57,604 bases of DNA from Moniliella sp. 'wahieum' (lineage: Eukaryota): NCBI GenBank assembly GCA_003971905.1, contig RSEE01000071.1, positions 310,001 to 367,604 of the forward strand, in the 5' to 3' direction. The notes beneath the pieces are model-generated. The model had not been told where the DNA came from. It saw nothing but the letters and a program-made list of their open reading frames with translations, and did not search any database. Position numbers and translations under genes: made by a program. Position 1 is the first letter of the stretch, and each line of letters starts with the position of its first letter. Positions 12,881 to 56,114 of the stretch are shown in pieces.

Positions 12881-13234
12881 GCCGAGCGGGTGATGCGATG
12901 GATTGATGTTTGCCGATTGCCCCCGGCCTGTTCTTGGACCATGGGTGGTGCGCACAGGCCATCCCCACCTGCTCGTAGCGCGTCCTGGTAATCCTCTAAG
13001 ATCTAAGTCATTAACCTCTTCATCATGCGCATTGGCGCAGGATAAGATAATCACGCATTCCGACTCACCGATTGTCGCCCCTTGTTTCAATGTTGCACCG
13101 CCATGCGCCGCAAATTTTTGTTGCACCGAACGCCGCGTCGCTGCTGCCCACGGCCGCCTCGGCCATCTTCGTCCGGCAGGCCCGACCCCCATCACCACCC
13201 CCACCACACCGCCCTCCCCCTCTCGTCCGGCGCG

Positions 13235-14645
13235 ATGCCATCTGGCAAGTCGAAGAATGTCCACCCCGTCAGCGTGCACGGGGGCAATGTGTCCCACATT
13301 GGGAACAGATGAAGCGCAACCAGCTGGTGCAGGCGTACAAGGGAAGAAAAAGGACAAGTTGAAGCGCCGCAAGGCGTTGGTCAAGGCTGAGCGCCTGGGC
13401 GGCGAAGGGAAAGCAGCTCCGCGCCGAACGTTTGGCCACCAACATTCCTCGCACCATTGAAAATACGCGTGCGTACAACCCTACCATTCTCAACGCGCCC
13501 AACACCCACCCTGGCCGGAGCAACTGGCCAACCGGCCAGCCAAAGCCAGGCCCGGCCCCCAGTCCGAACCCCGCTCTGGTTCCGACGACAGTGACTCGGA
13601 GGACGGGTCAGGGAGCGAAGTGGAGGAGGCGGAGGAAGATGAAGGTTCTGCGCCGCGAACAGGATCGTCCCATGCTCGTGTTCAGGATGAGGATGAGGAT
13701 GAGGATGAGGATGGGAGTGAAGGGGAAGGGAGAGGACGAGAGGGAAGAAGAGGAGGAGGACGAAGATGAAGATCCTCATGCACCACTGTATTTATTACCA
13801 TCTCGACAAAGCAACTCGATTGTACCGCACGCGCCTTCGCTCAAAACCGTGCGCGTCCGTACGAGCGTAAGCGGATGTATCAAGGACCTGCTCAATGTGT
13901 TCCCGGAGGAGCGGAGTACGTGCGCGTGGCAAAGCCAAAGGTGTGGCGCTGGGAACAATGCAGGAGGGCAAGGAAACGAGGGTACGACGCCAGGTTGGGT
14001 AGTTGGGGGAATATATCAAAGCGCCGGCACTTGAACCATCATCAAGTTGCCTCAGGGTCCCACGGCGTTTTTCCGTCTTACGGGACTGCAACTGTGTCAA
14101 GAAGTAGCCAACCACGGAGTTTCGACAGGCCACACACCCGAACTGATCCTCAACAACTTTACCACCGCACTAGGTCACTCGGTGGGCAAAATGCTGCAAT
14201 CTTTGTTCCCAGCCATCCCGCAGCTGGAAGGGCGACAAGTCGTCACCGCTCACAACCAGGTGACTATATCTTTTCCGTCGGGCACCGGTACATGTTTGCC
14301 TCGGCCGACAAGGCGCGGCTGCAAGAAATTGGGCCTCGGTTCACGTTGAAGTTACGCTCGCTGAAGAACAGTTGCCAAGGGCGCCGGACGTGGGACGGGG
14401 TGATTGATTATGGGCGATGGACATGTAGTGTACACCAAGCATGCGGCCCAGCCGCCCCGGGTGCGGGTGCGGGGGCAGGGGGTAGAGGACGACGACGAAG
14501 AGGAAAGAGAAAAAGCCGCGCTGGCCGAGCTCGAAGCTGGCTATGCTGCCCCGGCACCGCCAAGCCTTCCGAGGCAGAGAGGTGGGGGAGTCGAGTTCCA
14601 GTGGCAAACAAATGTCCGTGTCGAGCGCCAACTTTCTTCTTATGA
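13235..14645 (+). CDS. RPF1: Brix-domain ribosome biogenesis factor Rpf1
   Basis: NIPRTIENTR, IKLPQGPTAFFRLT, HGVSTGHTPELILNNFTTALGHSVG, GRQVVTAHNQ, RYMF, LQEIGPRFTLKLR. Acidic insert; frameshifts. Confidence 0.85.
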
Positions 14646-14948
14646 TCATAATATTGCCATGTCTTTTTTTGCACACCCCTCGTTCAAGCTTCATCATCGT
14701 CATCCTTCATTTTGTCATGTGCACTTTGCTTCAGTAGCGGCTTGGCCCTTCCTCTAGCCTCTTTCGGCCATCCGCGGGTGGGAGATAAGGTCAATGGGTG
14801 GTAGGAGACAAGGGGGTAAGATGTTTTCAAATAAGCGCAAGCGGTTAACTTGGTGCAATGATACTCCTCCCATTTCCCCTCGTATCCATCCCATCATCCA
14901 TCATTACCATCCCTTTCGCCTAACCCACGCTCGCACTCACAAAAATCA

Positions 14949-16851
14949 TCAAAACGAACGAACCGACACACGAAACAGATGCCCTGGGCCGCCCCAACCC
15001 CGAATCTCAAAGCCATACCCATATAGCCATACCCCCCCCATTCCCCTCACCTCCTCGCACCAAAACACGTTCCCCAGTGGTAGGGCCGGTGGGAGGGGCA
15101 GGATCTTGGTCGCTCGCTCGAGGCGCGACATGCGCTTGTACCCGGCCGCGCCGGTCACCCGAAGAGGCGTGTAGCGCACCTGGGACTTTGCGGGGGACAA
15201 GCCCGAGAGGGAAGGGGGGGTAACGAGCGAGCTGGACGAAGGGGAGGACAAAGTCGGGGTGGTAGTACGTGGCGAAAGCACATCCGATGCAACTGGTGCC
15301 TCTGGCGCGGCTAACGCTGGCGCAGCGAGCGTGGGCATGCGACGTAAGGCCTCGGGAACGAGCGTTGATGCGGGTAGGTACGACCAAGCCACGTAGCAAG
15401 TCGGTGGCCGTGACTAGGGCAGCGCTGAGCCCCGCTTCGGACGGATCATGGCCTCCATCGGGCAGCAGAGTGAGGTGGCCTCGGGCCAGAGGGACCGCAG
15501 TGTCCATACGGCCGAGGGGGGCGAAATCAGGTCGTAGCGGCCCTGCACGAGGCGGGTGGGGATGTGGCGGATACGAGAAAGAGCGGTCGGATGGAGTAAG
15601 GGGGTGGGGAGAAAGGAGTTGTGGAGCAGATGGGTCTCGATTTTGGCCGCGGCCAGTTGGGCCTGGAAACGAACGTCAGAAAGGGGAAGGGGGGGGGGGG
15701 GTACCCTGAGAGGGGGGGAAACAAAACGCACCTCGGTGGCCGGTTGAGCTTGAGCCTGGGCCAGAGACGGAACCGGAGCAGAGCGCGACGTAAAAGTTGC
15801 TGGCTCCAGTCTTGTAGGCCGACCAAAAGTAGCGGCTTGGTTCCGGACAGCAGGGTCATCAGCGACAAGGCGCGAATGGTAAGCTTGGACGAGATCGCCT
15901 CTTTCTTCTTCCGGGGATAAACGAGACAAATGCATCCACAGGTCGGGGAGGATGTGCCGTGCGCCGTTGGGCCTGAGCCAAAACGCATCCCCCTGGCCCT
16001 GGCCCGCCTCGACCCCAGCCAAAACCAAAGCCGAGACAGCGGTCGGGTGGCTTGCGGTACGCCAAGGCCACTGTGGCGCCCCAGGAAACACCCAGGATGA
16101 GCCAGCGGTCCACATGGAAGGAGGTACGGATGAGCTCGAGATCATGCAAGAGGAGAGGGGTGGTGTTTTTCCTCCGTCTCGCCCGCAGGCGTGCTGCGTC
16201 CGCCCCCCCTAAGGTCGAGCGAGAGGATGGGTACTGGGACGAGTCGAGCCAGCGGCGTTGGAGGGGGGTGCAGCCTACGCCAGGGGAGGGGGGAAGAAGA
16301 AGCAGGGCTGGAGTGCCATCGGGCGTGCCGGACCAAGACCAGAAGAGCTGGTGGGTGGCAGAGACGCGCAGCATGCCCTGATCGTACGGCTCGAGGGGGG
16401 CGTAGAGCGGCACGAGGCCAGGCTTGGGGCCGGTCAAGGACCGCTGGGCCGAGTCCGAAGGCGAGCCCAAAGGCCGCTCCGAAGGCGAATCCGAACGAAC
16501 AGGAACAGCAGCAGCGGATGGCGATGCAGTATCCGTCACGCAGATCTGCGGCGGGGGCGCGTGGGGAGGCGGCGTGTCTTCGGCGAGCGACGCGCGTGGA
16601 CGCGCGTGCGCACGGGCGGTGGAGGGGAGGAGGAGCGGATGTGGTTCACGGCGGGCGAGGAGACGCTGCGTGGAAGAGACGCGGCGCGCGCACTTCGCGA
16701 CAAGGCCCATGGCGGATGGAGACGGTGGGACTTGGTCGGGGTGTGGGCGTGGAGGCGGCAGGGGCGGCGGGTCGCCTGTCGAGGGCGCCGACGGAGCGTC
16801 GTGGCGGCCAAAGGAGCTGAGGCGGTTGCGCAGCCGCGCGAGGACAGGCAT
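14949..16851 (-). CDS. Proline iminopeptidase-like alpha/beta hydrolase (S33) with long low-complexity termini
   Basis: LYAPLEPYDQGMLRVS, NTTPLLLHDLELIR, nucleophile GVSWGATVALAY, IPTRLVQGRYDL, GGH. The 3' end is uncertain because of frameshifts. Confidence 0.8.
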
Positions 16852-17917
16852 GCTGGTGCTGCGGGCGGCGGCAGAGATGGCAGAAGGACGCCCAGCACGC
16901 GCACGCAGCTGGGCAAGCAAGAAGCGGGAGAGGTGCCCATAGCAGAATCGCCGATTCCAAATTATCAAAACCCATCCCCCTCGCAGCGCACGCCAGGCCA
17001 CACAGTGGCGCCGTGCTGGTGTGGCGCACGGCAGCAGCGCACGCGCGGGGCACGGGGGCAGTGGTGCGCAAGCGTGCCTGGTGCGCGCGCTTCCGACACA
17101 GCCGCAGGCCGCAGGCCGTCGGCGCCAGGCACTGGAGCGCACTGGGCGATCCATCCCCGCTTCGTTCCCGTCGAACAAGCGAGCCGCAAGGCAGTCCCTC
17201 GTCACGTGCTGGCCACGCGAGGGCAGCAGGTGCATTGTCATACACACAACCCAGCCTGTCCTCTTCTGCCCACCCCGACTGTGGGAAGATGGATGGCACA
17301 TCGTCGGCGCATTCCATCCCTCCCTCCCTCCACCTCACATCCATTGCTTTCCCAGCGGCTGCGTTCTGCAGTGGGGCTATGCAAATCGCGCACGCACAAC
17401 ATACAATCTACTGGCACAAACGGTGCCCAAGCCGGGTCCGTGGTCCGTGGTAGGAAAGGAGCACGGCGCGCTGGAGCAGGGCAGGGGTGGCAGGTGTGAG
17501 GGAAATCCGGGCACGTGTGGGGCGGCAGGGGCAAAGGAGGCAACCAGGCCAGGCGAAGGACAGACTACCAAAAGGAAATGGAAACAAGGAAAGAGAGAAG
17601 GGGATGGAGTCGTATGGGTTGGTGGGCAATGCGAATAATGAGTAGTAGAGTACATGGTGAGGCAAGTCTGCCCCCCAAAGAAAATGTAGGAAAAGAGAGG
17701 CAAGGGAAGAAAAAAAGGACACGAGTACATGGTAGAGGCGCCATCATGCATCACATGTAACATGCAACACCTCGGGCTCTCTTCCCTCCAACTTTAAGAT
17801 CAACGGTACCGTTAAGATCGAGATCAAGAACAGAACTTTTTAGGTGAACCGGGGGGCATGGACGCATGGCATCTGCCTCTGCTGTTTTTGTGCGGTGAAG
17901 ATCCAAGCGGCGTGGGT

Positions 17918-19741
17918 TCACGAATCGGGCATGGGAGGTGGGAGGGAGAGTGTGGGCGGACTAGGGCGGCGGCGGGAAGAGAGGGTAGTACGGGGGTAGA
18001 ACGAGGGGAGCGTGAGCGCGGCAGTGAGTGCGCGTGCAGCGGGGTCGAAGGAGAGACAGCCAAGCCATCCGGGCAGCGCAAGGGAGAAGGAGAACAGGAG
18101 AAGAAGGAGAAGAAGAAGGAGAAGCAGACAAGGTATCCGGATAGGAAACTGGGGGACGGGACCGCGTCGGTTTTCCTGCCGCAGTGGGGAGAGGCGCACC
18201 GCAGACGCACCTGTCCAAGTGGATGCAGAAGCACATTCCGAGCCCGATCCAGTGGACGAAGTCGATCCCAACCCCACCGTCGAGGAGGCCGGAGAGACCG
18301 ACAAGGCTGGCGAAGCTGGCGCACTTGGTACCAACGCTGCCATCAGCGCATCAATGTCGCGTGTACCACGGGGGGTTTGGCCGGCGTACTTGGACATGGG
18401 TGCCGACGGGTGTGGCTGCCTTGGTTTGTCCTCATGGGCCAGGCCCAGCTTGGACAGGACGGTGGCAATGTGCTGTTCGTGGGCACGCGCTTCTTGCTCT
18501 GTGCGGTCGCTGACGGAGCGGGGGAAGGGGGCGACGTGCACGTGGTACGCCAACGGGAAGAGGTGGCGAGGTAGGTAACGAGTCAAGTTGCGATCCCGAG
18601 GACGAACTCGATCCCGATCCCGATCCCGATCCCGATCCCGATGCGGGAGAGGAGCCGACGGACCAAGTAGGGCTGAGATCCCTTGGATGGTTGGGTGCAG
18701 ACCCACGGGCCTTTTCCATCGCCGAGGGACGGGAGGCAAAGCTAGTGTAGAGCGAGGTAAGGGACAGTTGCTTTTTAATTGGACTCTTTCCCAGGGCCGA
18801 GCGCCAGGACCGTACGTCGTCGCGCATGCGGGGTTGGGGCGTTGGGCACGGGCTGGCGCTTGGGGTGGCGGTGGTACTCGAGGACGGAGAGGGTAACGAG
18901 GGTAACGAGGGTAATGCAGGCAAGGGCGGACGAGAGCAAGGTGCACGTGGATACGTACAGTGAGACGGGTACGTGCGGGAGCTCAAGGAGGGCGCCGAGG
19001 GCACATGGGCAAGTACCCGGCTGGTCCGGTGCCCGTTGGACAGAGGGCTTGCGGGGTGGGAAGGCAAAGGAACGGGGAAGCATTCGAGCAATTGGTTCAG
19101 GTCCGTGGGCGCGCTCGCACTGGTAGTCGGCAGGGTGGGCAAGGGCATAGCACGAGCGTTGGCACTGGTGCAACGTGAGCGGGGCTCTTGGCGCAGAGTA
19201 TCCACGGAATCCATTGGGCGAAGAGGAGCGGGAGGGGCCAGAGGCGCAGCGTGGTCCAACGTGGGTGTGTCCTCTACATGAACCGATTCGGTCGAACACG
19301 ATTGGAGCGAGGTGGTGCGGCTGCACGTGCCGACGGGGCATCTCCCGGGGCTGGACGGCAGGGTGGTACGGGAGCTATTGCTCGACGAGGGGGTCCTAGG
19401 CGACAAGGTGGCGGAATGCGAGGTGGCAAGCAAGTCATGCGGATACGACACGTCGGTCTAACGGTGGGAGAAACGGCACACGCCGAGAAGCAAAAAGGTC
19501 AGCAAAGGCTGTGACACTACACACTGAACCACTACGCCGTGTCAGAGAGCAGAGGACGAACCTTGTCCCAAATTCCATCGTCGACGCTATCCTCGTCACT
19601 GTCGGCTGTGACGGTGGTTGTCAGGCCCGTCGATGGGGGGTGAGGCGATCCTGGTGATGAGGGCGAGGCGGAGGAGAGGAATAGGCCTTGCAGAAGCCAA
19701 GGCTGGCGAGAGGGGGGCGGGAGGCTGGACATGTGCGGCAT
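17918..19741 (-). CDS. Hypothetical Ser/Pro-rich disordered protein
   Basis: Overlapping long minus-strand ORFs joined in frame by a GTTCGT...GCTGAC...TTAG intron at 19458-19561 (DGIWDK|TDVSYP). No recognisable domain; both ends uncertain. Confidence 0.4.
18609..18642. repeat. (CGATCC)n hexamer microsatellite
   Basis: About 5.5 tandem copies; coding GS or RD repeat. Confidence 0.85.
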
Positions 19742-20639
19742 CCACGGTGGGGACGGTGTTGTGGACGGAGGAGCAGACGAGGGAGGGGGTGAGGTGGGGC
19801 CGGGGCGGCCAGGCGGCCTGTCGACAAGGCGGTGTGGACGCGAGAGGGGGGGGAGGCAGAGCAGGGTGTGGGCTGGGGGGGCAGGAGGGGGGTATCGGGC
19901 GCAGGAGCACGGCGGAGGCGGTGGTGGGGAGGAGGCGAGGGCGGTGTGGGTCGCGCAGGAATATTGACCAGCGTCGGGAGGATGGCGGAGGGGCGGCCGT
20001 GTGGGACCAGATCTCTGATCCAGCCAGCCAGTCGCGTCTCCCACGCACAGACAGCCAACAAGGAGGCCAACGGAGGGATTCCCTGTCCCACCCGACGGGA
20101 GAAAGCGGCGCGGGACACAGGCGCGTGCGGGGCGGGAGAAATTGGAAATGGACAGCCAGCGCAGCCCAGCAGCACCCTGGGCGCCAGATGGGGCGACTAG
20201 TGACTACCTTTAGGGACGGGCGGCCGACAGCCGCTGTGCGGGCGAAGAGGGGCCGAGAAGGGCAGCGCAGGGCAGAAGACAGAGTGTAGGAGGGCCCTGG
20301 ATCCTGAATCATCCGGATGGGGCCCTGGTGGGCCCTGGCCAGCAGCCTGTCACCTGCCGCTGCCACTGCCACTGCCACATGGCCCATGTCAGAGCCATTC
20401 ACCGCCAAGGCGTCAGTCACGCATCAACCGAGACTACCGTGGATTTGGCTCCAGAAGCCCCCAGAACGGCCACGCTGGGACAGGCCAGGAGCGCTCGCGC
20501 GCCCCCCTGCCCTCCCTCTCCAAGTTCCACTCCCCCATCAAACGTTTGATGTTTAACGCGTATCGTTTAACGCCTTGATGTGCGGCAGCTGTGCCCCCCT
20601 TTTGCACCAAACCTACCCCCTCCTCCCGTCGGCAGCGGC

Positions 20640-21610
20640 ACAGGCGATACCTGTAACATGTCGCAGTTGTAACAGGTAACCGGTAACCGGTAACTATAGT
20701 AGTAACTGGTAACTCCGGTAACTAGCAACTGGTAACCGGTTTGTGGTACCGGTAACTAGCAACTAGTAAAACTATAGTCCATCCGGCAACCGATCGGTAA
20801 CTGTTTCGCTTTATAATGCGCAACCACATAAACTTGGACAGAATCCGCTTAACCGTATCGGTAGATCACCGGTACCACACCGTTTTGTCCCACAGACAGT
20901 AACTAGTAACTAGTAACTAGTAACTAGCCGGGCCTAAGACCTAACCTAAGGCCAGATGTCGACCCACCGCCGTCCTAGCCACCCACCGCCCCCACCGCCC
21001 ACCACCCACCCTCCACCCTCCACCCCGCACCGCGGTACCGCGTGCGTGCCGCGTAACGCGCTTAACGCGTAACGCACAGAGTACCCTGGACCAACCGGCT
21101 TCGGATCGACACTCCAACTGGCCTGACTTGCGCTCTCTTCCATATGCACCCCCTGCTTTCCGTCGGGCGTATGTCAATGAGCTCTTGAAGCTTGAGTCTT
21201 GAGCCTGAGGCCCTGAGGCCCCGAGGCCTGAGGCTCAGGGCGAATGCATGACACTCTTGGAGCCCCACGGGCTGACGCTGACGGACACTGGCTGACGCTG
21301 CGCGCTGACGCCGGCCGAGCGAAGTGTGATGTGTCATGTGTGACAATCACATACAATGTATGTGACATGTACCACGGCACGCGACAACCCGAGAAGCCTG
21401 GCCGCCACAATGTCCTGCCTCCGCTCGGGATCGGGATCCTATCCGTCCTTGAGCTCCTTGAAGCTTGAAGCTTGAAGGTCGAAATTGGAAAAGCTGGAAG
21501 CTTTTGTGAAACGCTTGAAGCTTGAGCTTGAAGCGGGAAACTGGAAGCTTCTCAAGCTCCTCGAGGGACACGAGGCCAGATGGCCTGAGGATGATGGCCT
21601 TGTGGCTCTG
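20640..21610. repeat. Cluster of 7-bp palindrome-unit arrays
   Basis: (GGTAACC)2-3 at 20675-20695, (TAACTAG)4 at 20900-20927, TAA-CGCG-TAA at 21063-21072, TGA-GGCC type at 21200-21240, (CTTGAAG)3 at 21457-21477. Confidence 0.85.
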
Positions 21611-24059
21611 AAATGGGGACGTTGGCAAAGGACGTATACGCCGGCGTTTTTAGCGGGCGTATAACATGCGTAACCACTGTGAGTCAGTCACGTTTCCGCA
21701 CAGACAGCGATACGAGTGGTATGCGCTGCTGGTGTGCGCAGGACGACTGGAGCGCGGTCGACCATCCGCATCGAGCATCCACGAACTCAGCTTCCCACTT
21801 CCACAGTGGGAAAGGGCTGGTCTACGCGTCACGATATGTCAGCCAGCTGTCACATATCACACGCTGTCACTTGCTGCAGTGCGAAGCAAAATGAATAAAA
21901 GTAGGGTGGACGATAGGAACTAGTACTAGTAAAAGTACGGTAGGTACAAGCACTCATATACCGCGGCTGCCGCGGTACCCTCCGTTACCGGTTACCTGCC
22001 CTGCAACCGCTCTTGCGTGTCCTCTTATCCATCCCACAAAATGTTTTTTTTCATCTTCCATGGATGCCGGAAACGGCTACGCAAATATACTCTCTTGCCA
22101 ATAATACGTCCGCCAGGTTCCAGCTGGTCTGCGTGGGCTAGGGCTTGCTATGGCCAGAGCATCGAGCGTTGCAACAATCCCCACGAAGTATGTGAAACGT
22201 GCGAACCGTGTGAAACAGTAGTTTGATGAGGAGATGGAAAACCAAGGTCGATAGCCGAACAGGCTTTTCTATGCCGAGGATGCACAACAGCGTTGTCCAA
22301 TTTGTTGGATATATCCGATCCAAGGGGGACTTTGTTGTTTATATGGAACCTAACCTGATAATGTGACGCGCACCTAGGCAACGCCCTGCTGGCAAGCGTC
22401 AATAAGTTGAGGGCCGTTCTGCCGTCATACAACTTATGCAGTGTCAACCATTGCGAATTGAATGTTGAGGCCCTGAGGCCTGAGATCGATGACATGATAA
22501 AGGAAATAGGGTGTGCGGTTGCATCCATCGGAGAAGAAACTAATAAAACCAAGTCCAACTCCCAACATCAATTTATTGCCAATACAAATGCGTTTCAACG
22601 TCCAACCACGTCCCCCAAAATCAACGACCCCCCGCCCCCCTCCAATCGTCGTTTCAGCGCGTTCACAGTGAGTACTACTGAGTTTTGCCAATGGACTCCC
22701 GTCACCTCAGTGACCGCGATCCCCATTGGCGGATGTGTCATACTGACTTGGTGTATTATACACCACGCCGCAATACGATTACATTCGGATACGGTGTAGA
22801 AGGGAGGGGGGGTCATCCGGTCAGGCTGGCCATCAAACATCGAAGAAGTCGTCTCGGTATATAGCCTCTTCTCCTTTTGTGAGAGATTCATTCCATGGAA
22901 CGAAAATCACTCTAGCCCTTACTATAGTTTTACTACTGTCACGGGCTGCGGCGACACGAGATGGTCCGACCGAAGCTGAGGCCCGTCTGCTCCGCACAGG
23001 CCCAGTAGAGCGTGCTCCGCAGGCCAACCGAGTGTGATGATGGTTGGCTAATTAAGTATCGTGGCCGAAGGCCATGCTCAGCGCGACAACAGTCGCCTCC
23101 CGCCCAAGTCCACGTCGGCCGGCCTAAATAAGGCCACCGAGCTTCCAATGCCGTGGCGGCGTCTGCCGCCTCGTTCCCGTTTCCTTTTCCTTTCTCGGTC
23201 GCGCCTGCGGCGACCAACCCCGCTTTTGACATGTCTTCCTTTCTACAACCCCCTCTTGTATCCGTTTCCCTTTTGATCCTGCCTGTACCCCTGGTTGATG
23301 GGGATCTTTTCCCCCACCTTCCCTTCTCGTCCTTTCTCGTCATCCTCTCGCCTTCCCGTCTATCCTGTCCGACTCCTGCCCGTTTCCAGCCAATTTATCC
23401 AGTACAGGCAGCTTCTCTTGTTAGCGTCCGACTTCTCCTCCGACCTCGTCCTCCAGCCCTTCGTCAGTCCAATCGCGCGAGCCCTCCTCTGGTCGCGGCG
23501 ATTCCCAGTCTCTGTTGACGCAGTGTTGTCCCCCTCTGCCTCCTCCCGTCCCTAAGTCTCGGAGGCTTCAGACACGTTACTACGGCCCAAGCCGGTGCAG
23601 ACGCAGCCTTGCCACACGTGCAGCCGCCCCACCAAAGGCCTCTCCTCGTCCCTAGCTCCGCTCGGACGCACCAACCAGCCTAAGCCCGAAACTACCGTGA
23701 GTCGACCTACCGTCGCCTAAGGGATTGTACCCCAAAAACCCCAGGCGGGCCCCCTGGCGGCGCCCGCCCGTGACAACTACCGCCTTGCCACTCTCGAAGC
23801 TCCATATCTTTGAGATGGCGTCCCACAGGTAGCCCCACCCCCCACCATTGCAGAATGTATCATGTGAGAAGTAAATGTCTGTCAGCATAGCTTTCTGCCT
23901 TTGCCCGACGAAAAAGATATCTATGTGCGTGGGGCCCCCGAGGTCCTCTCCTACGCCCCTCCCCTCTTCTAGGCCGGATGGCCTCGCCGATCATTCTAAC
24001 CCCTAACACGGTAAAAAAGAAAACCTCGGGAACCGGGATCATGCGATCACGCAACGTGT

Positions 24060-24880
24060 ATCGCTGCTATACTATAAGTAACTAGTAACTAGTAACTGGC
24101 AACTGTGCCGTATACCAGAGGAGAAGTATCCCCGGGCGCCACGGTCCATAAAAACTCCAATCTATTGCAAATCATTTCCCATTCATGCATCGTGCATGTC
24201 TGGGCATCAGATGCACATGAATCATGCGTCTGCCCGTTACTTGGGGTTGATTGGTACCTGGCGCTCCCGTCGACACCATAAGCCGAAGCTGGCGATGGCG
24301 CCGCGCCCAAATCTGAAAGCGCGCAAAGGTCAACGATCAACTTGGACGCAGCTAGAAAAGCCTTTCAAGCTTCAAGCTTCAAGCCCAAGCGGGCGTTTCC
24401 TTCCCATACGCGTGCGGATGGCCCCATTTTTGACAGCTGCTGGTGGCTGGCTCTGTTCAGTTGAACGTTGAACGTTGATGCATGATGCATGATGTGTGGC
24501 TGAAAGGTCCGTCGATGCATCCATGTCGCCTACTGCCTTCGTGGCACGACGCCTCTGTCCGTCGCGCGTGCTCGGTGGCGAAGTCACCAGTGAGGTCATC
24601 AATGGTCAATGATTAATGAGGGGATCTGCGTCGGCACATACTTATCACTCCCACGAAGCTACATAGTGCGTCGTGGTTGGTCGAGTGGCCAGGGTCGGCG
24701 GCGTCCAGGAGCGGGTCCAGGAGCACGGACGCGCCGGGTTGGCAAAAGCTCAGTCGTAAGGCTTAGGCCTAACAACTCAAAAGCGCGCTGAAGCTGGAGC
24801 TAAGCAGCTCTGAGATCTGAAGGATCTGAAGCTTGAAGCTCTTGAAGCGTATTCAATGTTGAAGCGTTGCGAGGTTGATC
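24060..24880. repeat. Cluster of 7-bp palindrome-unit arrays
   Basis: (TAACTAG)n at about 24079-24097, (TTCAAGC)3 at 24364-24384, TGA-ACGT/TGA-TGCA run at 24462-24494, TGA-GATC-TGA and TGA-AGCT at 24811-24840. Confidence 0.85.
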
Positions 24881-26550
24881 TGGTTGCCAAGGCACGCGCC
24901 TTGTCGCGAGAAGACCTCTGCATCCTGATCCACTCACCTACATGGAGAGCACCACAGCGGATGGGCTGATGAGGCGCTCAAGAGCGCTGAGCTCGACAAG
25001 TGTATAGGACAGCAGCAGCATATAAGTGAGACCCCGATTGCGTGTGAGAGATGGACGTTGGATATATATTGTAGGAAGCCGGAAGGATCTATACAGGAGA
25101 AAAAGTCACTAGTCACTCTAGGCCCCACCAGGCCACTCCTGCTGTCCTGACTTTGCGCTTATCATGTGGTTAGGATACGTGGCCATACACACGCCATCTC
25201 CGGCGTCGGCCTCCGCGGAGAACCTCTTTTGGAGGTACATCATTAAAGAGGTGACAGAAAGTCCTCCTTTTCACGATTGGTCACGCTGACAGTGGTGAAT
25301 ACGCCTCATCTTGAAGCTTAAAGTCAGTCTCACCGTCGCAACACTATAATATCCTCTCCTCAACGTTCAACCGACCTCCGTACGAAGACCGAACGTTGAC
25401 GTTGAAAGCTGACCGCAGTCGGGCCACAGGATAGCGCACAGCCGTTGGATCAGAATAGTCGGCTTTTGTTCCACTTCTATCCGTCGGAAACCTGTTGAGG
25501 CGTTGGCGACATGCATAATTTGCAATAGGAGAATCGTGAAACCCGCCTTACAACAAAACAGTAACTTGGAACAGAACAGATCCGTTGTAGGCGACCTTCT
25601 GGGATGAACCAAACTTTCCTCTTCGGCACACAACAGTGCCGTGCTGATGACAGTGAGTCTCAAGCAGTAACAACTCTCGAGGTTGCAAGCTGCGCTCAGT
25701 CTCGAACCCCCGGGCTTGGCAAACGGATTGGCGGTACATGAAAAGGGTGCAGGTGAATGGAACTCATGTTTTACGTTGACGCTTGCACAGAATGGACGGT
25801 CCGAGATCCTACACCATCGCGGGGGAATTGCAATTCCTGGCACACGACTGTTGTGTTCTTTCCTGTCGTACTTGTTTTTTGACGATGTGATCAAGTATCT
25901 TTAGTCGTCATATGCATGTCATGGGGGGCAAGGAGACGCGGGGGATCCCCTCCCAACCTTCTGGACGGGAACCTATGCGTATTGTCTCCCTATGGTGCAC
26001 TGCAGCCCCCTCTAATGTTTGCGAATTGCGCTGTAGCCACGCTGTCCCAGTTGGGGTGAAAACGACCATGCTTTCGGTCGTTGTCTGGGCCGTGATGACT
26101 TTGTGGGTGTGCCCAGCCTGGCTGGGTTGAAGCCGATGTGTTCGGTCTTGGGGTGATGAGATCCACCGACACTGGCTCAAGATGCCATTTGGGAAACAGA
26201 AATGCCCTTATTCCTTCAACACTTACGTGCTTTTGGAAGAACACGTGTATATGATTCTTCCCAGTCAAATCCCCGGTTCTCTATACTGTGCAGCCAAGGT
26301 GCGTTCAGCTGACTTTGGCAGCGTACGTGCTTGTCCAGAAGGCTGGGAGACAGTGTTGCGTGCTCTGCCCATGCGTCTGCCCCTGCACGCAGAGGGCGGT
26401 GCTCTGTTGCTCTTTTGGTGTCTGCCCGCGGCACCCTGCTCCACTTACGCTGCGTGTTGCGAATTGCGATTTCAACAATGCCGCGCATGCCCCACTCCGA
26501 GTTCCGAGCTTTGCGTGTTCGCATCATGCATGATGCATCATGCATCGACC

Positions 26551-26772: not shown

Positions 26773-29818
<3,046 letters not shown>

Positions 29819-35675: not shown

Positions 35676-36096
35676 TAAAGTTCTTTCCCTGTATCCCACA
35701 GAAGCGTTGGTCAGGCCTGTGATGGATGTTTGTTTGCTTCCCCATTGAGCTTCACTCTGCACTCCGAAGCCGCTGGCGAGAAGGCCTGAAGCCTGAAGCT
35801 TCCTGGTTCCATGTCCTTGCATTGCGAAGCACATCAGCCATGACGTGTGGTGTGCCGTCAGATCTGAGATAGCACCTACGAAGATGCTGGTGTTTGGTAG
35901 CCGTTTGGGACTTGCACGCGCCCTGGTGGCGGGCGGCGTGTGGATGGATTCGGATGGACGTGGATGCGTAGAACGTTGAACGTTGAAATTTGAATATTCA
36001 GCCCGCAAATGTTGGGGCCGAGCAGACTCGATCCTTGGATGTTTTGACTTGAACATTTGGTTTGCGTCCTAACCACCATCCTGCGTGCTCGTCGCC

Positions 36097-40456: not shown

Positions 40457-40684
40457 GCAGCGCAGGCTGCGTTTCCTCTCTTCTAAATTGTACTCGTACA
40501 CCCAGGGAACCCTACTATATGCCCATCATCTGCATCATCTGTTTAGTTCTTGGAAGATGGGTGGTGAGAACGAGGGGGAAATAACGGCTACAGGGTTTAA
40601 ACGTAGGTGCATAGTGTGGACAACGTGGAGGAAAGCTTGAACCGCTTTAGCCCCTGAACTGCCGGCGGCATATAAGAACGTGCC

Positions 40685-41145: not shown

Positions 41146-41711
41146 TGGCCAAGGTAATCGAACGCAACAGTCCATGCCCTCTGCAGAATTATCTCTTCCT
41201 TTTGAACACTTGTCGCCAGATGAGTAGCCATGCATACCTAAAGGTTTGGCGGTAGTGTCGGCCTCTTCGCCTTTGGAGGGCTGGAAGCGATGATGGCCTC
41301 TGACTCAACTTTCTCCTTGTTCAGTATCTGGAAACCGCTGCTACTTGCTGGGCACATGCTCGTTCCCAGCGAGCAACGGGGGTTAAATGGGTTAAACGTT
41401 AAATGGGGTCAGGCCCAGGTCACCGGTCAGGAGGGTGGGTGTGTGACCGGTGATGTTGCACGTGAAGGTCACCTGACCGACCACCGATTCTGATCCCCGT
41501 GAGATCTAAGGAACAGAACCACAAAATTACGAACCCTACCTTGGTACACTACAAATGCTGCGGCAAATTATCCGCTGTGAGTATACTACACTGCCCCCGT
41601 ACGTGGGGCGTACGAGGGTAGTTAACCCTACTTCTGCTGCGAATGGGGGGGGGGCGTAGTGGTGGCTTCTCTTTGCACTTCTGTTTGCCCAGCACCACCG
41701 CCAAGACCGCC

Positions 41712-44096: not shown

Positions 44097-45184
44097 CGTA
44101 TATGGATGAGCAAAGTCAGGGCGTGCTGGAGAAGGGGAAGGTGGTCGGGGGGTGGAGGGAGGAGCGTGGCGCAGAAAAGGGGACGGACAGACAGGTAAGG
44201 AAGGTAGAAGCGGCGCAGGTGATGGGCTCTGACCTACTAGCGGGCCTCAGGCCTCATGGCCTCATCATCGATCCGGTTCGCTTATGGTCAGCACGGCTAT
44301 CGCACCACGCATCAAGACTCGCGGACTCGTTTCCCAACCGCACAGCGTCCAACCGGGCGCAGGGGCCACTCACAAGCGGGAGGAGGCCACCTGGGTCCCT
44401 CCGGCGCGTCTAGTATATTCACATCACTGTACTCAATAGTCCTCCGTCAGTCATCACTGCTTAGGACTGTAACAACCAACTCCCACACCATTGCCTGCGC
44501 TGCGTCCCTCCATCGGGGACAAAGGAAGACGTGTATGAATAATGGCCGCCAACAACGCGCGCTGCTTATGGTCGAGAACAGATAATAGCAGCAACGGGGT
44601 GCTGTATGGTATATCGACCCTCTGTTCTGCAGTACTCAGTAAATGCTACTCAGTACTCCGGCAGGTGTGATGCGTACTAGTATCGAGTGGGTCTTTGTGC
44701 GTAGCAGGCAATAGACCAGTCCAGTAGCTACAATAGCGAACGAATGGCACTAGTAGGCGGTCCGCTCTTTCCAGAATGACTCCACCCACTTAGTCTCCAC
44801 TTACGATGTACTTGTATCTATATTTATCACTCATACTGTTGTTCAAGACGAGCAAGATACGGCTTTCCATGCCGACATTTCGCACTTTCGCTGCCATCGA
44901 TCCTCACGCCAGATTGCGCCACACCCACACTTTTCGATAACCTAGACCATAACGACCATTTTCTTCAAGAAAATCGGGTGGGTGCTGATGGTAGCAGAAT
45001 GGGCAAGTCGCACCCAAAGGTGGATGGGATGAGATGGGATAGGGCTCAGGATGGATCTGTTTCTCCCAACGTAAGCAAGCAGGTAAAGATGAGGGAGGCG
45101 TTGAATAGAGGACGACGACAAAGCACATAGATGACGCGGTGAATGTTCCAAGGGGCTATAGGAGTGCCAAATCGAGTTGAAGGA

Positions 45185-46147: not shown

Positions 46148-46901
46148 GCGTGCTCGTACTCAGTGGTCAGGGTGGGGCAGCTGGAGGCAAGCGCAGGGGG
46201 GTGGGCTACTTTGGCGGCAATGTTTTTTGTTTGGGGCCGAAGAAGCACTTCGGGCGGGGCGTCTGGGGCCGTGTGCAGGGTTTGGCCACGTGACTGGTTG
46301 AAATGGATCGCCACCACGTTTGAAATTGGAATGTGAACGGAGCATCGAGCAGCGCTTTTCGATGATAGTTGCACGATTGCAGATTGACACGTGGAGGATG
46401 GCGGCGCCGTACTACGAATCGGCGACGTAACTCAGCAGGCCGCAAGTACGGATTGGGGCGCGTAGAGACCCGAGAAGAGACAGGAAATGGTGTATTGCCT
46501 TGCACATCAGCTACAAAGGCTAGCGGTTATTTCTTCTCCCCTTAAGAATTTCACCGACTGAAGGGAACCGGGCTACATAGGACTGCCGGCGTCTCAGTCA
46601 CCCAGAGAGTGTGGCACCACAGAGCGCTAACTTTAAAGGGTTCTCACTCCCGCTGGTTGTGAGAGCAGAACATCGTATAGATGGACTAAGAAGCACCTGC
46701 GACTGACTCGTCCAAAGACTAGTGTAAACTAAGTAGGAAGGAGAAAGAAAAACGGGCTGATTATTCACAGCACGTCACTCACAGTACGGTCTGCTGTCTC
46801 CTATAGGACGGGGGTGTCAGCAACCTAGAAGAGCGCAGAGAGAGGGCACACCACTGCTAGGGGGCGGGGGAGGGTTGCGCATGTGTCCCAAATTCCAAGG
46901 C

Positions 46902-46943
46902 TGGGTGGATGGATATTGCATTGGGTGGATGGATATTGCATTG
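46902..46943. repeat. Perfect 20-bp tandem duplication (TGGGTGGATGGATATTGCAT)2
   Basis: Directly visible. Confidence 0.9.
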
Positions 46944-48639
46944 ATCGGCATTGTACCGTGGCCAATCCCTTTGAAAAGTCGGTTGATCCGTTTTTGGTCC
47001 AACTATATATTATACTTTTGTCCAACCAACGACCTTCTGCCAGTTTGGATTATCGCTTCTGGGGCACTTTTTATTGTCTCCCATACGGGATGTGCCGTGA
47101 GTATCAAGTTCACCTGTCCGATTGGCTCCATCTCTCCGTCTTCTATATCTTCCGGTTGCGCGCCTGTAGTACAACCCATGGTGACGATGAGATCTCTGCG
47201 CCGCTTGGCTGAGCCGCACAATCACCCCTTACCGAGTAGGTCAACGATGGAGACGATCCGCAAGAGGTCCACAGGAGGTCATTGTGTCGCGCCATACCGG
47301 TCAAGGCGGACGTCTTGAAGAGCGCCGACCCTTTGTTCCGGCTCGGTGCGATGTACCCTATGCCCCGACAAGTCTATTTCCCGCGCACGTCTCATCATGC
47401 CTCAGTTCTTCTGTTGAGCCATCGGGTGGCTCGTGCTTTGGCCAATGCCCCTTCATTCCTCCTCAGGCCTGAGAGTTCTGTTGTTTTCTCTCTCCTGTTT
47501 TCCTTGTTCCGCACCTTGGCCCCTGGTGGCGACTCGCTGCTTGATGTTTCTCTATAGGCCTTGCTGTGGTTGACATAAACGACGACTACCACCAGTGCGA
47601 TTGCATCACCCTCGAGGACCATCCGGACTTCAGGTCTCATCATCTTCGCCTTCTCCAAACTCCGGGGAAGCGAGGTCTGAGAGGCGGCAATGTCGCCGAT
47701 TGTGACTGAGCTCACTTCAAGCTTCAATTTCCATTCTGCGTGCCGTGCATTTCTGGCTCTCCCTTTCCCTTTTGTCCTTGCTCCCGAGTAAATGAGGCTC
47801 AAAAGTGGTGACCCACAAGGCTTCCAAAACGTCTGGCGAGAAACAAACAGGGAGAGAGAATACCGAAAATGGTGGGAGCCGGCGGGGGTTCACAACCTAC
47901 TGCTAGCGAGCGAAACTCTCTCACCTGACTATAAGCGAGCGTCACTGATCTCAACTTGAGAAGCGAGCAGGAGAACGCACAAGCACCGAGATACCCACGC
48001 TTTACACAGTAACTACCTTTGGGTTCTCCTCGCTAACTTGTTGCAGTCCCTCGTCTCCCCGTCTTAAGGCATTCGTTTCGTCTTCCTTATTCCTGGAGTG
48101 TGTGGTCCGAAAAATACAGTTCGTGCCTTTACTATACGGCCTAAGAATGAAAGAACCTATGGATCTGATGATCGATGAAGGTCCAACGGCTTCACAGCTT
48201 CACCAGCACAGCATGTTGTAGCCTGTTGCTATTTTTCTACTTACTATCATACTTTCACTCTAATAACCTGTTGCTTTTGCTACTTACCATACTGCATCCA
48301 TAACATTGACAAAGCTTAAGGCTGGGACAGGGAAACGAACCGAACCGCTCTCATCTCGCGTGCGTCACTTGGTAGCGCCACCACTGCCAGGGAACCAGGG
48401 GATCGCCAGGATATCAGGACCTTCTGGTTCTCGCCATCCATCCGTCCCGTACCGAGGTAGTGCGTGTGGACACGGATGATCGTGGTAGACATCCGAGTGA
48501 GGAACCATTTCCATTGAGATTCTTTCACTCCCACGTGTTTTACTCTGTGCACCATGTGCAACAGATAGGAAAATTCATGTCAAGCCATATGCAAAATGGG
48601 CCCTGAATTTGTTCTTACTGTGGCCCCCCTGTGCCCCCA

Positions 48640-50730
48640 CCGGCCCAAGGAGGGACTTCATGCACTTCATGCATCATGCAAGCGTCATGACGGGGTTCCT
48701 TTGTTTGTCGATGGCATCGCACCTTAATGGCCTTAATACTAGACCTTCGTCTGCAGAGCCTTGTTCCAGGTAGGCATGTCGTCCCACATCACGTGTCACA
48801 TGTCACACCTTTACAGTTAGCTACGTGAAGACACCTCTTCCCTTGATTAGTGACTAGCGATTTGACTTACTCCCTGGCCGGCTGCCCCCCTAACTAAGTA
48901 CCAAGGACCAAGGCCTATGGCCTAAGGTTACCATTTACGGATAGGTCTAAGGCTAATGCCTAAAGAGGGTCGTCGGCCGACCGTTGTCTTGCATAATATG
49001 CCGCACAACCCATTGCACGTTCCAGGACAGGAAAATGGGTCAGAGGTAGGCACGGGGGCAGTGTGGCATGTTCACCGATGCGGCGCCGCGCGCTGATCGA
49101 GGATCAGTGATCGATGCCATCGATGCCATCGATTATAACTGCAATCGCGAATCGTAATCGATGATCGCGATCATCCACAAGTGACGGATTCACTCTACTC
49201 AATGGCCGCACAGCGATATCCTCGCCAGCGGCCCATCTGATCCATTCGTCATATTCAATCGTCAATAGGCCGAGGTTGCATTGGGAGAAAGGGGGAGCAC
49301 GACGGATGCTGAGATCGATAATCGATCTGTAGCCTGGATTCGGTCTGTGGGGCCGGGGACGGATGAAAGATCAAATTCAAAAACGCCCTGTGGGATCTGA
49401 TAGATCTGATAGCGAGGTGGCAAAATGATTGGCTTGAAGCTTGAAGAGCACGACAACAGAAGCTATGTATATGAAGCGATCGATGGGCCATGTGATGTGG
49501 CATGTGACATGGGCATGCCAAGTGTGATTTCCCACAGGACCAGCCGCACCCTGCCCGCGTGCCTGCCTCGCTCATCGATCATCGCCCTCGCACCCTCGGC
49601 TTGCTTTCTCAGAACTCGCACTGCGGTATCAGACTGAGTATCAGACTGACACAATCAGATCTGGATTCGCACGCGAGCTGGTCCTTGTCATCTGATCGCG
49701 ATCATCGGCCAGCGCTGCAACCACCCCGCCCCAGCGACCAACTTTCAACCGCCGCTGCTGGGGGCGGCAGGGCGCTAGTGTCCGCACCCGAGACATTGCG
49801 TCCCTCGCTCCCTCGCACATGTGCCCTCCCCTCGGCGAAGACTCGCGTACTGCATGCGTTTTAGTGTGTCTCTCGCAGTGCGCTTGCTTAATGAGATGGC
49901 AGAGCTTAGTTGGCACCGCTTCATCTTCCATCTCACATCTCACATCTCGCCCCCAATCACCAGCCCGCCTGCGTTGGTGTGCTTCCAACCCACCCACCCA
50001 CACTGCAGCTCCCGCCCGTCTCCAGGGGTTTCAGCTCCCAGCAGTAGCTGTCATGTTGGCAGCGAAAAAGACCGCATGCTATTTCTCCTCCTGTAACATC
50101 AGTTCTGGCTCACAGCGCGCACCCTCTCGCCGCATGATACTGGCTTGGAGCCTGCCCAGCACTCTTTTTCCCGCATCAGGCACCTCCTCTGTACATCCCA
50201 CCAATATCCACCACTGACAATGGTTAATGGTGCGTGCCCTACGTTCCTGTCTTGTCCGAAACTGTCGGGGATGGCGCGTGTGTATAACCGCACAAAGCCA
50301 GTAGAAGTGGAGGAGCAGGAGGGGACGAGGAACAAGGAGGATAGGGTGCAGAGACTCGACCCTTTTCGATTTGCAACCATTAATCACTACCCTTACAATA
50401 TAGGGATGCTACTAGTCACTTGACCAGAGTCTTTTTCATCCCCATTCTTCTCGCGCTTGAGCGCTTGAGCTCGACACGCCAAGACGTGCCCCTGAAGCTT
50501 CCCGCTTCAAGCCTCAAACCTCTCAGACCTCGTGCTTCCGGACTTCAGTTCCGATCTGTCATCAACGTTCGACGTTCAACAGCTCTCCCACCGCTCCTGT
50601 CGCTTCGCCTACCCCATGTGCTACATGTACCCGCTGGCCTCGCATGTCTCACGCGTTCCACACCAAAACGGTGTGCCTGCCGCTCTGAGCGCCTGAGCGG
50701 CCTGAGGCCTGAGGCCTGAGGCCTGACGGT
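48640..50730. repeat. Dispersed cluster of 7-bp palindrome-unit arrays upstream of the ferric reductase
   Basis: TCA-TGCA-TCA at about 48667, TCA-CATG-TCA at about 48796, TAA-TCGA-TGA at 49155-49164, TGA-AGCT-TGA at about 49435, TCA-ACGT at about 50562, (TGAGGCC)3 at 50703-50726. Confidence 0.8.
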
Positions 50731-51126
50731 CGCACCCTGCCTCTCTCCTCGTCACCCATCTCTGTTTCGTACCTTGAATTTTTTGATGTCGGAGCTACCT
50801 GGAGGCAGAGAGGCTGTACTTGATACCAACCTGTTGAGCCGCTCGCCGTGCATCGCCTCACCGATACTCTCCTCCATCTCCCCGAAGAAAGCCACGGCAC
50901 TACTCCTGTGAACATCTGTCTCCGTACCGGAACAGAACTTACCCGCGTGACAGCATAACCGCCATCCGACTGTCTTGGTACTTAAGTACCTGTCACACGC
51001 TCCCTCGAACTGTCGCCTCCACTTTTCCCTTGGCCGCATCCCTGCACATCCCACAGTACAAAACGAGCGCATCCCTCTCCCCTGTTCGTGAGCACCATCC
51101 CCTCCCCACCCTCAATTTCGGTCGAC

Positions 51127-53363: not shown

Positions 53364-54508
53364 ACTCAACCGGGGAGCACCCAGCGGTTTCAGCTGTATG
53401 GGCAACCTCCGCTGACGGTAGCCTAACGGTAAGACGTGCTGCGAGAGCAGCGATGCATATGTCATGTAACGGATTATTTACACTGCATTTGTCACCGCAC
53501 GAAGAGAAGCGGCACCAACCCGGGCTGGGGGCGGCAGTTCAGCGAGGTACATGCTTCATAGAGACTGGAAGGTAATAGTGACCTCGGCCGGTCTGCTTCG
53601 GACGGATGAAACATGTTGATCAATCATATATCTCCAATACCCAAGTCTTCCCTTTCACTCGCTCGTATCCCTGATGCCCCGTCGTTTTGCCCGGTGTCAC
53701 GGGCGAAGGCGGGTGGTAATCCCGGCGGAACCTACGCGCGCCCTTCGCCTTTCTAACCCCTTCCCCAGATTGGTCATGGGGTTAGATTCGATTTGATCCG
53801 ATCTCAGCTGAGGCGCTGAGGCCTGAAGGCCGTCCGCGATTACAAGTCTACGTATCCGGGCAACAATAGTCTCCTTTGGCCCTAGTGAATTGAGAACCTC
53901 TTCAGTTTTGCGGTTTCCCCCAGTTTCCGTTGTCCTTGCTACGCTAGTCGCCCGTGTCTGACGGGGGAACACTTGCTACAGAAATACTGCCCATGTTGAC
54001 ACCCGTGCGGCGCTCTCCCAAGGCCTGCACATCAGCAGCGTCCTCGGCGGAAAGCCAACGTCAATGATAGAACCATCCTCGACGCATCGGATCGTTACTC
54101 TGACGGACCAAGTAGGAAGAGTGACATTGGGTCTGCAACCGGGCTGTGGACGGCACCGGTTGAACCGCGTTGGCGGCAGGCGGAGCAGTGCGCTGTTACA
54201 GCTAAGTGTAGGGCCAGGTGGCACAGTGACCGGTGTGCTCGGTTCCGTTTTCACATAGAATCGTGCAGACGGCGCTATTGACCGCACTGGGGGTCGGGAG
54301 GTCCACGTGCCGCATCAGTCGCGGCTCACCACATTCGGTATATCTTCAATCAGAGAGGAGGCCGCCGCTCTGTCAGTACAGAGCCCTCAACTATATCACG
54401 GAGACGATAGCCAGGTGCCGCCTTTCGTATGCCAAGAAGGACTCACGGAGGATGTCCCATTTCCGACAGGGCTAAATACAACTCGTCGTGGGTGACAGGG
54501 CGGCCGAA

Positions 54509-55399
54509 ATGGGCGTGGTCAACCTTGTTACGGGTCTCGGACCAGGCGCAGGAAGCGAGATTGCCGAGCACATGGGTATTGACAAGGTATCCTTTACCGC
54601 TCCACACGTGTTCGGACGCATGGTGATGCAAACGGCCGCCAGTACCAACCTCAAAAAGGTAACCCTGGAGCTGGGTGGCAAATCCCCCGTGGTAGTGCTG
54701 GACGATGCCGATTTGGACCAGGCGCTTTCATGGTGCCCACTGGGCGCTACCCTTCAACACGGGCCAGGCCTGCTGTGCCGGATCGCGGATCTATGTGGCC
54801 GAGAAACTTTATGAGCCTTTCCGCGCTGGCCTCAAGGCGAGGTTTGAGGCTATCAAGGTGGGTGACCCGTTTGACCGGTCTATACCTTTCTCGGCCCTCT
54901 GATAAGCGAGGTTCAATATGACCGCCTCATGAAGTACATTTAGACTGGCAAGGCCGAAGGGTGCCTGGTGACGGTGGCAATCCTTTGCCGGAGGAGCGGT
55001 ACGTTGGAAATGGCAATAAGGTGAACGGGTGGTTCATTGCGCCCACTATCTTTTCGATACCTCTGAGGACTCGGTGATCAATCGCGAGGAAATCTTTGGT
55101 CCAGTGGTGGTTGTGCACAAGTTCAAGGATCACGACGAGCTGGTGCACAAGCCAACGATTCCATGTACGGCTTGGCCGCTGGCATATTTTCCCGCGACAT
55201 CTCCAAGGTGCTTAAGACGGCCCACTCCCTCGAGGCGGGCTCGGTATGGATCAACACGTACCTCGCCTTGTCGGCCCAAGTGCCGGCTGGTGGGTACAAG
55301 GCATCAGGGATTGGCCGTGAAGGCTCGGCATACGGTCTGGAAAGTTATGTTCAGGTTAAGGCGGTTTCGATCAACATTGATGCGCCCAACCCCTTCTAA
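54509..55399 (+). pseudogene. 5'-truncated aldehyde dehydrogenase (C-terminal ~60%)
   Basis: Similarity starts abruptly at GVVNLVTGLG, then DKVSFT, TLELGGKSP, GQACCAGSRI, EEIFGPVV, YGLAAGIF, GGYKASGIGRE. No PWNFP or GN..VLKP N-terminal motifs seen upstream. Confidence 0.7.
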
Positions 55400-56114
55400 A
55401 GCCACAGCAAAGCAAATGGCTCACTGAAGAACTATCAAGCAGTCCAATGCTCCTCTGGGCCTCTGTTCGTCCAGAGCCCCTCTTTTGGTGTCTACTTCTC
55501 TCATACTGCTCCTGCGTTCCTGAAGTATCCGAAACAAAGTGGGATGCCGGCACTGCATGGTACCCGTGGTTTTCTCCATTTTACTATGCCAGCGAGCATT
55601 TAGGTGCCGCACACGGTAGTGAAAGAGAGGGTCATATATGAATCTTCATTATGATCTGTTTCGACATTTGAAGAAAGCACTGGTACGGAGCCCGCTTACA
55701 ACTAAAGAACCAACTGCGTAAACACGGTAGCATGCGCTCTCTATAGATAGAGGAAACATGAAAGGCTGATGCACAGCAAATCATCTTGTGGCGCAAACGC
55801 TGCCTGCCACAGTCAGGGCTAAGCGAGAGAGGCCAGGGTCGAGACTATAGGTGAGATTTTCGCCTACTGGAGGTGACGGTCTCCCCCTACCGAGCGTTGC
55901 CCACGATGGATGCGCCCTCCACTCCACCGATCCAGCTGCAATAGTCCCAGCCAGGAAGTAAGTAGTAACCCTAATGCCCGTACAGAAAGTCGATGTAGGG
56001 AAATTGCGGCCACACGTCACATGTCACCCATGGCCATCATGCATCACGGCGTCAAATCTGCGTGTCACATGTCACATGTCACACAACATTGTTGCCGCCC
56101 CGTGCGCTGCCAGC

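Follow-up and report, generated by a model that had tools for sequence, protein, structure and literature searches.

The DNA analysed here is a stretch of 57,604 nucleotides from Moniliella sp. 'wahieum' (NCBI GenBank assembly GCA_003971905.1, contig RSEE01000071.1, positions 310,001 to 367,604 of the forward strand), called the window throughout. It is eukaryotic DNA with split genes and is rich in GC (53–68%). Comparison of its open reading frames (ORFs) with Pfam revealed genes for TIP49/RuvBL, MCM, TruD, a PLP decarboxylase and TFIIIC Tau95, and further genes of the window are those for phosphatidylserine decarboxylase, RPL27A, an IBR protein, emp24, ferric reductase and aldehyde dehydrogenase. 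A protein-atlas search with the Tau95 ORF returned matches of low score only, all of them unrelated. The subject of the analysis is a set of short arrays, lying mostly outside long ORFs, in which the trinucleotide T-N-A (TNA; N, any base) alternates with a 4-base palindrome, together with the single units of the same kind, here called scars. All scar counts come from this one 57.6-kb window, and chance levels were obtained from dinucleotide shuffles (200 blockwise shuffles for the count of TNA-N4-TNA).

Palindromic cores and the flank rule

An earlier note on this DNA had listed arrays of the form (T-x-A-N4)n with a self-complementary N4, and all of them were found, at most 3 bases from where it had placed them: AGCT cores at 21457 and 24364, GGCC at 50703, CATG at 56065, ACGT at 24462 and 41393, TGCA at 26524, GATC at 24811 and 12997, TCGA at 48169, CTAG at 20900, CCGG at 20677 and 41420, CGCG at 21063, and AATT/ATAT at 35984–36000. 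The count of palindromic cores that it had proposed as a check came out clearly positive, with 65 occurrences of TNA-palindrome-TNA against 5.9 in shuffles (s.d. 2.4, maximum 15), whereas TNA pairs separated by non-palindromic tetramers are not enriched (87 against 93.8). Among spacers of 0–10 bases between two TNAs, the 4-base spacer alone is enriched, and 15 of the 16 palindromic tetramers are used as cores. There are 33 runs of 14 bp or more with a perfect period of 7, and in 19 of them a rotation of the unit is an odd palindrome; 18 of these 19 palindromic units are centred on T-N-A, where by chance about 11% of units would be palindromic and a quarter of those T-N-A-centred. The same note remarked that one strand of T-x-A always reads TGA or TAA; this is correct, but it holds for any x, so that the stop codons are a tautology and carry no information.

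In most chains the sequence of the core is dictated by its flank. Either the 2 nt to the left of the first TNA appear in the core, preceded by their reverse complement, or the 2 nt to the right of the last TNA do, followed by theirs. Links (TNA, core, TNA) that obey this rule and whose two TNAs agree in their middle base were counted 43 times, against 0.30 in shuffles. Counted by chain, the rule holds in 36 of 49, and in 25 of the 38 that consist of a single link, of which about 12% would obey it by chance; the roughly 13 of 38 single links that do not follow it correspond roughly to chance background plus decayed copies. Since the core is dictated by the flank, each event is a +7 insertion in which 5 bases are copied forwards and 2 are inverted, turning yz-TNA-wv into yz-TNA-z'y'yz-TNA-wv (primes, complementary bases) or producing the mirror image. 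On both strands together, 61 such events have T-N-A centres, against 0.31 in shuffles; all other centres pooled give 40 events against about 10.7, these being partly other phases of the same arrays. None of the other core and arm geometries tested in the window was enriched. The middle base tracks the supply of sites, with 32 links at 500 TSA sites and 11 links at 225 TWA sites (S, G or C; W, A or T), and in the ancestral sites reconstructed for 19 single events T and A alone are fixed, the arms being without symmetry. The flank rule and the T-N-A specificity support the proposal of the earlier note that symmetry and spacing, rather than sequence, are what is conserved.

Register was said there to be kept while the palindrome changes, which is true of three chains, at 24462–24492 (ACGT, then TGCA), 35977–36000 and 17744–17760. 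The array at 24460–24494 grows both ways from one site, and each of its halves measures 19 nt, not 21. Register is kept in this array because the left and the right flank of a single GT-TGA-TG site were each used, and the half-lengths of 19 nt exclude the duplication of a ready-made palindromic 7-mer. Copies of scars with one mismatch (46 against 5.7) or two mismatches (96 against 51) are common, indicating that the process has been long-running.

Larger products identify the unit that is duplicated. The pentamer NNTNA recurs at a distance of 7 bases 76 times and at a distance of 9 bases 40 times, each against 4.3 in shuffles. With U denoting the TNA-centred 7-mer NNTNANN, the arrangement of U, 2 inverted nt and U (+9) was found 7 times, against 0.005–0.01 in shuffles, its filler being the reverse complement of the first or the last 2 bases of U. 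Such inverted filler is present in 7 of the 14 TNA-centred duplications with two intervening bases, whereas among other 7-mers it occurs as often as chance predicts (11 of 93). U separated from U by one base (+8) was found in 3 cases, all three with an inverted base (0.07 expected), and plain U+U with a non-palindromic U in 2 cases. The class with 2 inverted bases between two copies of U establishes the symmetric 7-mer NNTNANN as the duplicated unit. Both copies of the duplication are retained at scars: in the +7 product 14 nt replace 7, and the +9, +8 and U+U classes agree.

Ordinary replication slippage on heptamer microsatellites that are palindromic by accident would be in keeping with the arrays of 3–4 units, and slippage probably does add copy-number change once at least 2 units are present; a scan with a 24-base idealised pattern also placed (TGAAGCT)n arrays on at least 120 unrelated metagenome contigs. 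Slippage cannot, however, create the first unit or its 2 inverted bases. The 38 single-link chains among the 49 lie below any slippage threshold, yet 25 of them obey the flank rule, and neither the TNA centring of 18 of 19 palindromic units nor two 19-nt arrays with one TGA in common is explained by it. Among the metagenome matches listed, flanks with at least 2 other-core events were seen in only 1 of 120, the multi-core grammar thus being missing, and these listed matches included no relative and no independent confirmation of that grammar; look-alike stretches of the window were absent from the other genomes compared. Slippage as the origin of the scars is therefore considered very improbable.

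Scars along the window and their gene setting

The catalogued scars and arrays are given below by their coordinates in the window, with no strand assigned.

12997–13006: single +7 scar TC TAA GATC TAA, the core being the reverse complement of the left flank followed by the left flank
20669–20769: compound hot spot of GTAAC-type units, with (GGTAACC)n at 20675–20694 and a +9 scar at 20708 (GGTAACT+CC+GGTAACT)
20898–20927: (AGTAACT)4 array with CTAG core
21063–21072: single scar TAA CGCG TAA, the right flank matching
21186–21234: single scar TGA AGCT TGA at 21186 and a +8 unit at 21204 (CCTGAGG+C+CCTGAGG)
21457–21550: (CTTGAAG)3 at 21457–21477, followed by a decayed CTTGAAG run to 21550
22474–22483: single scar CC TGA GGCC TGA
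24077–24097: (AGTAACT)3 array
24364–24384: (TTCAAGC)3 array whose growth used the right flank, AG
24460–24494: two arrays with one TGA in common, GT TGA ACGT TGA ACGT TGA TGCA TGA TGCA TGA TG, with implied ancestor GT-TGA-TG
24811–24848: cluster of a +7 scar TGA GATC TGA, TGA AGCT TGA, and two +9 scars (TCTGAAG+GA+TCTGAAG and CTTGAAG+CT+CTTGAAG)
25104–25117: (AGTCACT)2
26521–26546: TGCA-core array in which the middle base flips (TCA/TGA/TCA), just upstream or at the start of the long ORF leading into MCM
35971–36000: chain with cores ACGT, AATT and ATAT, about 85 bp upstream of the Tau95 ORF
40524–40541: +9 scar CATCATC+TG+CATCATC
41393–41429: two single scars, TAA ACGT TAA and TCA CCGG TCA
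44243–44265: scar TCA GGCC TCA and a period-8 run, GGCCTCAT
48169–48178: single scar GA TGA TCGA TGA
48656–48807: in order, a +9 scar at 48656, a +7 scar at 48667, a +9 scar at 48722 and a +7 scar at 48794–48807, the last being (TGTCACA)2
49396–49446: +9 scar TCTGATA+GA+TCTGATA, and (CTTGAAG)2 at 49432–49446
50453–50726: +8 unit at 50456 and (CCTGAGG)4 at 50699–50726, upstream of the ferric-reductase ORF
53807–53826: +8 unit GCTGAGG+C+GCTGAGG
56037–56083: single scar TCA TGCA TCA, and (TGTCACA)3

The two AGTAACT arrays with identical units, at 20898–20927 and 24077–24097, are separated by 3.15 kb of DNA without inverted ends, which is therefore not an element inserted in one array.

In total, about 36 rule-obeying loci are found in 57.6 kb, and about 5% of the TNA sites outside ORFs are affected. 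Pfam-aligned coding DNA (7.2 kb, 256 TNA sites) contains 0 scars against 5.5 expected. ORFs of at least 200 codons, under which 44% of the TNA sites lie, hold 2 of the 43 links, and 35 of the 43 fall in the 24.6% of the window that is outside ORFs of at least 130 codons; of the 8 links under ORFs of that length, none is within a Pfam-supported exon. This distribution supports the placement of the arrays outside coding DNA in the earlier note, and the scarcity of scars in coding DNA may be due to selection. Two stretches of the gene-poor 20.4–25.4 kb hold 24 of the 43 links. According to a rough ORF-based gene map, the two intervals in which gene ends converge (1.36 kb in all) hold 0 links where about 3.4 are expected, which as a location bias is only suggestive, and a putative divergent region at 20.4–26.1 kb holds many scars.

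The gene-flanking position of the arrays, the symmetry of their units, and the difference between convergent gene ends and the putative divergent region would all suit selected cis-regulatory or structural elements, such as sites for dimeric proteins or cruciform/hairpin promoter signals. The core, however, is set by 2 chance flanking bases, with nearly every palindromic tetramer in use; no protein-sized word is conserved beyond T-N-A, and scars that stand alone or have decayed are numerous. As single strands the arrays fold weakly (−5.4 to −10.5 kcal/mol, z −1.5 to −3.9). A promoter location is predicted equally by insertion into open chromatin (compare Cryptococcus T1, in the portion of PMC9942834 used here) or by purifying selection elsewhere. 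Selected elements are accordingly held to be improbable, and the suggestion of the earlier note that the arrays are hairpin or cruciform elements read by their structure is not sustained by cores that follow whichever 2 bases flank the site, nor by folds of this strength.

The gene-poor region at 20424–26130 comprises 5.7 kb without an ORF of at least 200 codons, and its 62 ORFs gave 0 Pfam matches. On one side it is bordered by a minus-strand ORF and on the other by the plus-strand ORF that continues into MCM. The region, in which the 24 links mentioned above lie, could be an extended divergent promoter or contain small unrecognised genes. Two long C-rich low-complexity tracts on the plus strand, at 6270–6550 and 20960–21035 (CCCGCC and CCACCC types), have no relation to the TNA grammar. 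At 16001–20000 the plus strand is strongly purine-rich (GC skew 0.17–0.29, AT skew 0.16–0.23), which fits minus-strand genes without Pfam matches.

The MCM helicase gene (27291–29715) contains at least 2 single-base frame shifts within conserved motifs, at about 28.82 kb (after ...GLTAYVT) and about 29.35 kb, with no space for an intron; because the gene is essential, these breaks indicate indel errors in the assembly. A copy of HSP70 at 310–2285 has several frame changes and an in-frame stop inside conserved blocks; it is a pseudogene or else poorly called sequence. Matches to 'NAD-GH' in Pfam lie antisense to this copy, and we take them to be the known mirror of HSP70. The single-base frame breaks in these conserved genes (two in MCM, several in the HSP70 copy) are what could be cited for an assembly or base-calling artefact as the source of the scars. 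The errors seen are nevertheless 1-nt indels, not rule-bound insertions of 7–9 nt, and T-N-A specificity, exact copying of the flank and avoidance of coding DNA are not expected of sequencing error, so that an artefact is the least credible of the explanations weighed.

Excision footprints as the probable origin

We consider it probable, with moderate confidence, that the arrays have been built up from the footprints left on excision by a cut-and-paste DNA transposon, which inserts at NNTNANN sites and leaves them again. A symmetric 7-bp duplication is what a transposase dimer leaves at insertion, and we infer the element, the hairpin chemistry and the joining route from the products described above. 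In the proposed route, the element would insert at NN-T-N-A-NN and duplicate those 7 bases (U), and on excision its transposase would seal the flanking ends into hairpins, as hAT, Transib/RAG and Mutator-like enzymes do. A host nuclease would then nick each hairpin 2 nt 3' of the tip, leaving each opened end with a 4-nt 3' overhang that consists of the 2 outermost bases of U and their inverted copy (wvv'w' on one side, z'y'yz on the other). Superposition of the two overhangs and ligation of both strands would give 14 nt with a 4-base mismatch, and resolution of this mismatch to either strand, by replication or repair, would give yz-TNA-z'y'yz-TNA-wv or yz-TNA-wvv'w'-TNA-wv, both of them +7. 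The core would switch when the other flank is used. The +9, +8 and U+U products would arise when one hairpin is opened at or beside its tip and the whole of U is kept on one side.

This route would explain the uniformity of the products, because it needs neither trimming nor synthesis, and owing to the complementarity of T and A, nicks at 2 nt and at 3 nt from the tip would have the same product. Because new TNA sites and a perfect 7-bp palindrome come with every scar, re-insertion, and probably slippage too, would extend arrays in register. Products keeping both fillers and 14-nt products with a single inverted base (a hairpin opened one base off the tip) were both absent from the window.

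Links with complementary middle bases (TCA...TGA), which form perfect 10-bp palindromes, were found 10 times against about 2.1 expected, and include those at 17744–17760, 26524–26540, 35991–36000 and 47463–47472. They could be scars with 4–5 inverted bases, from hairpins opened farther from the tip.

Several observations weigh against an origin by excision. No transposase domain was found by Pfam in 292 ORFs of the window (163 of at least 130 codons and 129 short ORFs from gene-poor stretches), a search of the window for target-site duplications with terminal inverted repeats returned two matches only, both of them the AGTAACT arrays themselves, and no long repeats were found when the window was searched for them. 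The scars are far more uniform than the usual published end-joining footprints, and their density is very high for a piece of DNA without a visible DNA transposon. In addition, the nick position and the mismatch-ligation step are borrowed from general knowledge of hairpin processing, and the footprint reading as a whole is drawn from the letters of the window.

The same density and uniformity, and the lack of an element in the window, would favour a process independent of transposons, in which break repair or replication at T-N-A (through a site-specific nuclease, or fold-back or template-switch synthesis) writes the +7 directly; template switching does account for an inverted copy of neighbouring bases. 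A 7-bp direct duplication with inverted filler, however, needs a staggered 7-bp opening that is filled on both sides, which insertion followed by removal provides naturally and a simple break does not. Template switching has no microhomology for the return jump, and C-N-G, G-N-C and A-N-T centres should serve it as well, yet they are not enriched; the inverted bases added are only ever 2 (or 1). A transposon-free process is thus judged unlikely, while being the strongest of the competing explanations. The earlier note had pointed to an iterated mutational process distinct from ordinary slippage, and this part of its proposal stands, whereas template switching as the mechanism does not, given the limit to T-N-A and the 7-bp duplication.

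Should excision footprints be the correct explanation, transposon activity is being under-read, in that scars far outnumber visible elements and a genome that looks poor in transposons may have been heavily shaped by one family. Excision would also supply a concrete mechanism for the birth of tandem repeats and for promoter palindromes, and the window would hold part of a natural fungal record of hairpin processing, in which the opening and end joining of hundreds of hairpins is preserved together with a narrowly fixed nick position. Other genomes can be searched simply for the same process with the signature U(-2) + 2 inverted bases + U at NNTNANN. A more tentative extension, which we rate somewhat below an even chance, is that a very active lineage of flank-hairpin transposons with a 7-bp TNA-centred duplication, maybe an EnSpm/Transib-like branch beyond the 2–5 bp range, acts as a genome-wide writer, being a leading source of indels in gene flanks and the origin of most heptamer tandem repeats, with each scar leaving a better target behind for later events. 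If so, this would be a route of microsatellite birth not previously described.

Comparison with known systems

Several known processes were compared with the scars and rejected. Quasi-palindrome template switching perfects an existing imperfect inverted repeat with no net direct duplication. It resembles the process here in that short palindromes are made or perfected from neighbouring sequence; it was rejected on the net gain of 7 bases, the direct copy of 5–7 bases, the limit to T-N-A, and ancestral arms without symmetry. Snap-back or polymerase-theta-type synthesis was set aside for lack of microhomology for the second copy, and hairpins of the tyrosine-recombinase or telomere-resolvase type for products that do not match. 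A 5-bp duplication with 2 P nucleotides is asymmetric and does not produce the +9 class. PIF/Harbinger and IS5-group elements have the T-N-A target word in common with the scars; a PIF/Harbinger-type 3-bp TNA duplication with filler from the element ends was likewise rejected, because here 5–7 bases are copied and the 4-base filler is derived from the flank.

Full-text literature, the Ustilago literature included and subscription journals being outside its scope, yielded no account of palindromic heptamer arrays centred on TNA or of fungal footprints that build repeats, and no paper on the Ustilago maydis parallel raised in the earlier note, and the portion of a tree-of-life repeat survey used here (PMC12699852) does not mention heptamers. 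For Cryptococcus T1, 41 of 46 new insertions lie between genes, and the part of that paper drawn on here reports no target motif and so provides no link to the TNA scars (PMC9942834).

Among transposon groups, the CMCT clade (EnSpm/CACTA-like), which includes Transib and RAG1-like enzymes, is described in the part of PMC12730594 used here as making duplications of 2–5 bp, in contrast to 7 bp in the window, and this counts against an EnSpm-like source. According to the same text, the basidiomycete hAT7 and Kyakuja transposons, described from Pucciniales and Agaricomycotina, make 7-bp target duplications, as here, and hAT7 groups with Ac and Tam3, whose enzymes form flank hairpins; that part of the paper states neither a TNA-centred target nor footprints for them (PMC12730594). 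Within the window, no hAT7- or Kyakuja-type transposase is encoded among the 292 ORFs.

Flank hairpins that are opened by host enzymes and end-joined, leaving footprints, are described for hAT, Transib, RAG1 and the MULE Muta1 in the part of PMC5499845 used here. The scars agree with such footprints and with the P nucleotides of V(D)J joining in that the target duplication is retained in two copies at the empty site and the junction bases are short inverted copies of the adjoining flank; as with flank-hairpin footprints, the scar would be made by host end joining. The filler here is almost always exactly 2 bases, unlike that of flank-hairpin footprints, a single product accounts for most scars (43 links, the other products numbering 7, 3 and 2), and the scars lie so densely that tandem arrays result, with no element seen in the window. 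The duplication also differs from that of hAT elements in being 7 bp and T-N-A-centred, the hAT target duplication being 8 bp with the consensus nTnnnnAn. The details of Ac/Ds footprints and the rule that hairpins are opened 2 nt off the tip are general background, and excision footprints as such are known; what would distinguish those of the window are their scale, their uniformity and their role in making tandem repeats.

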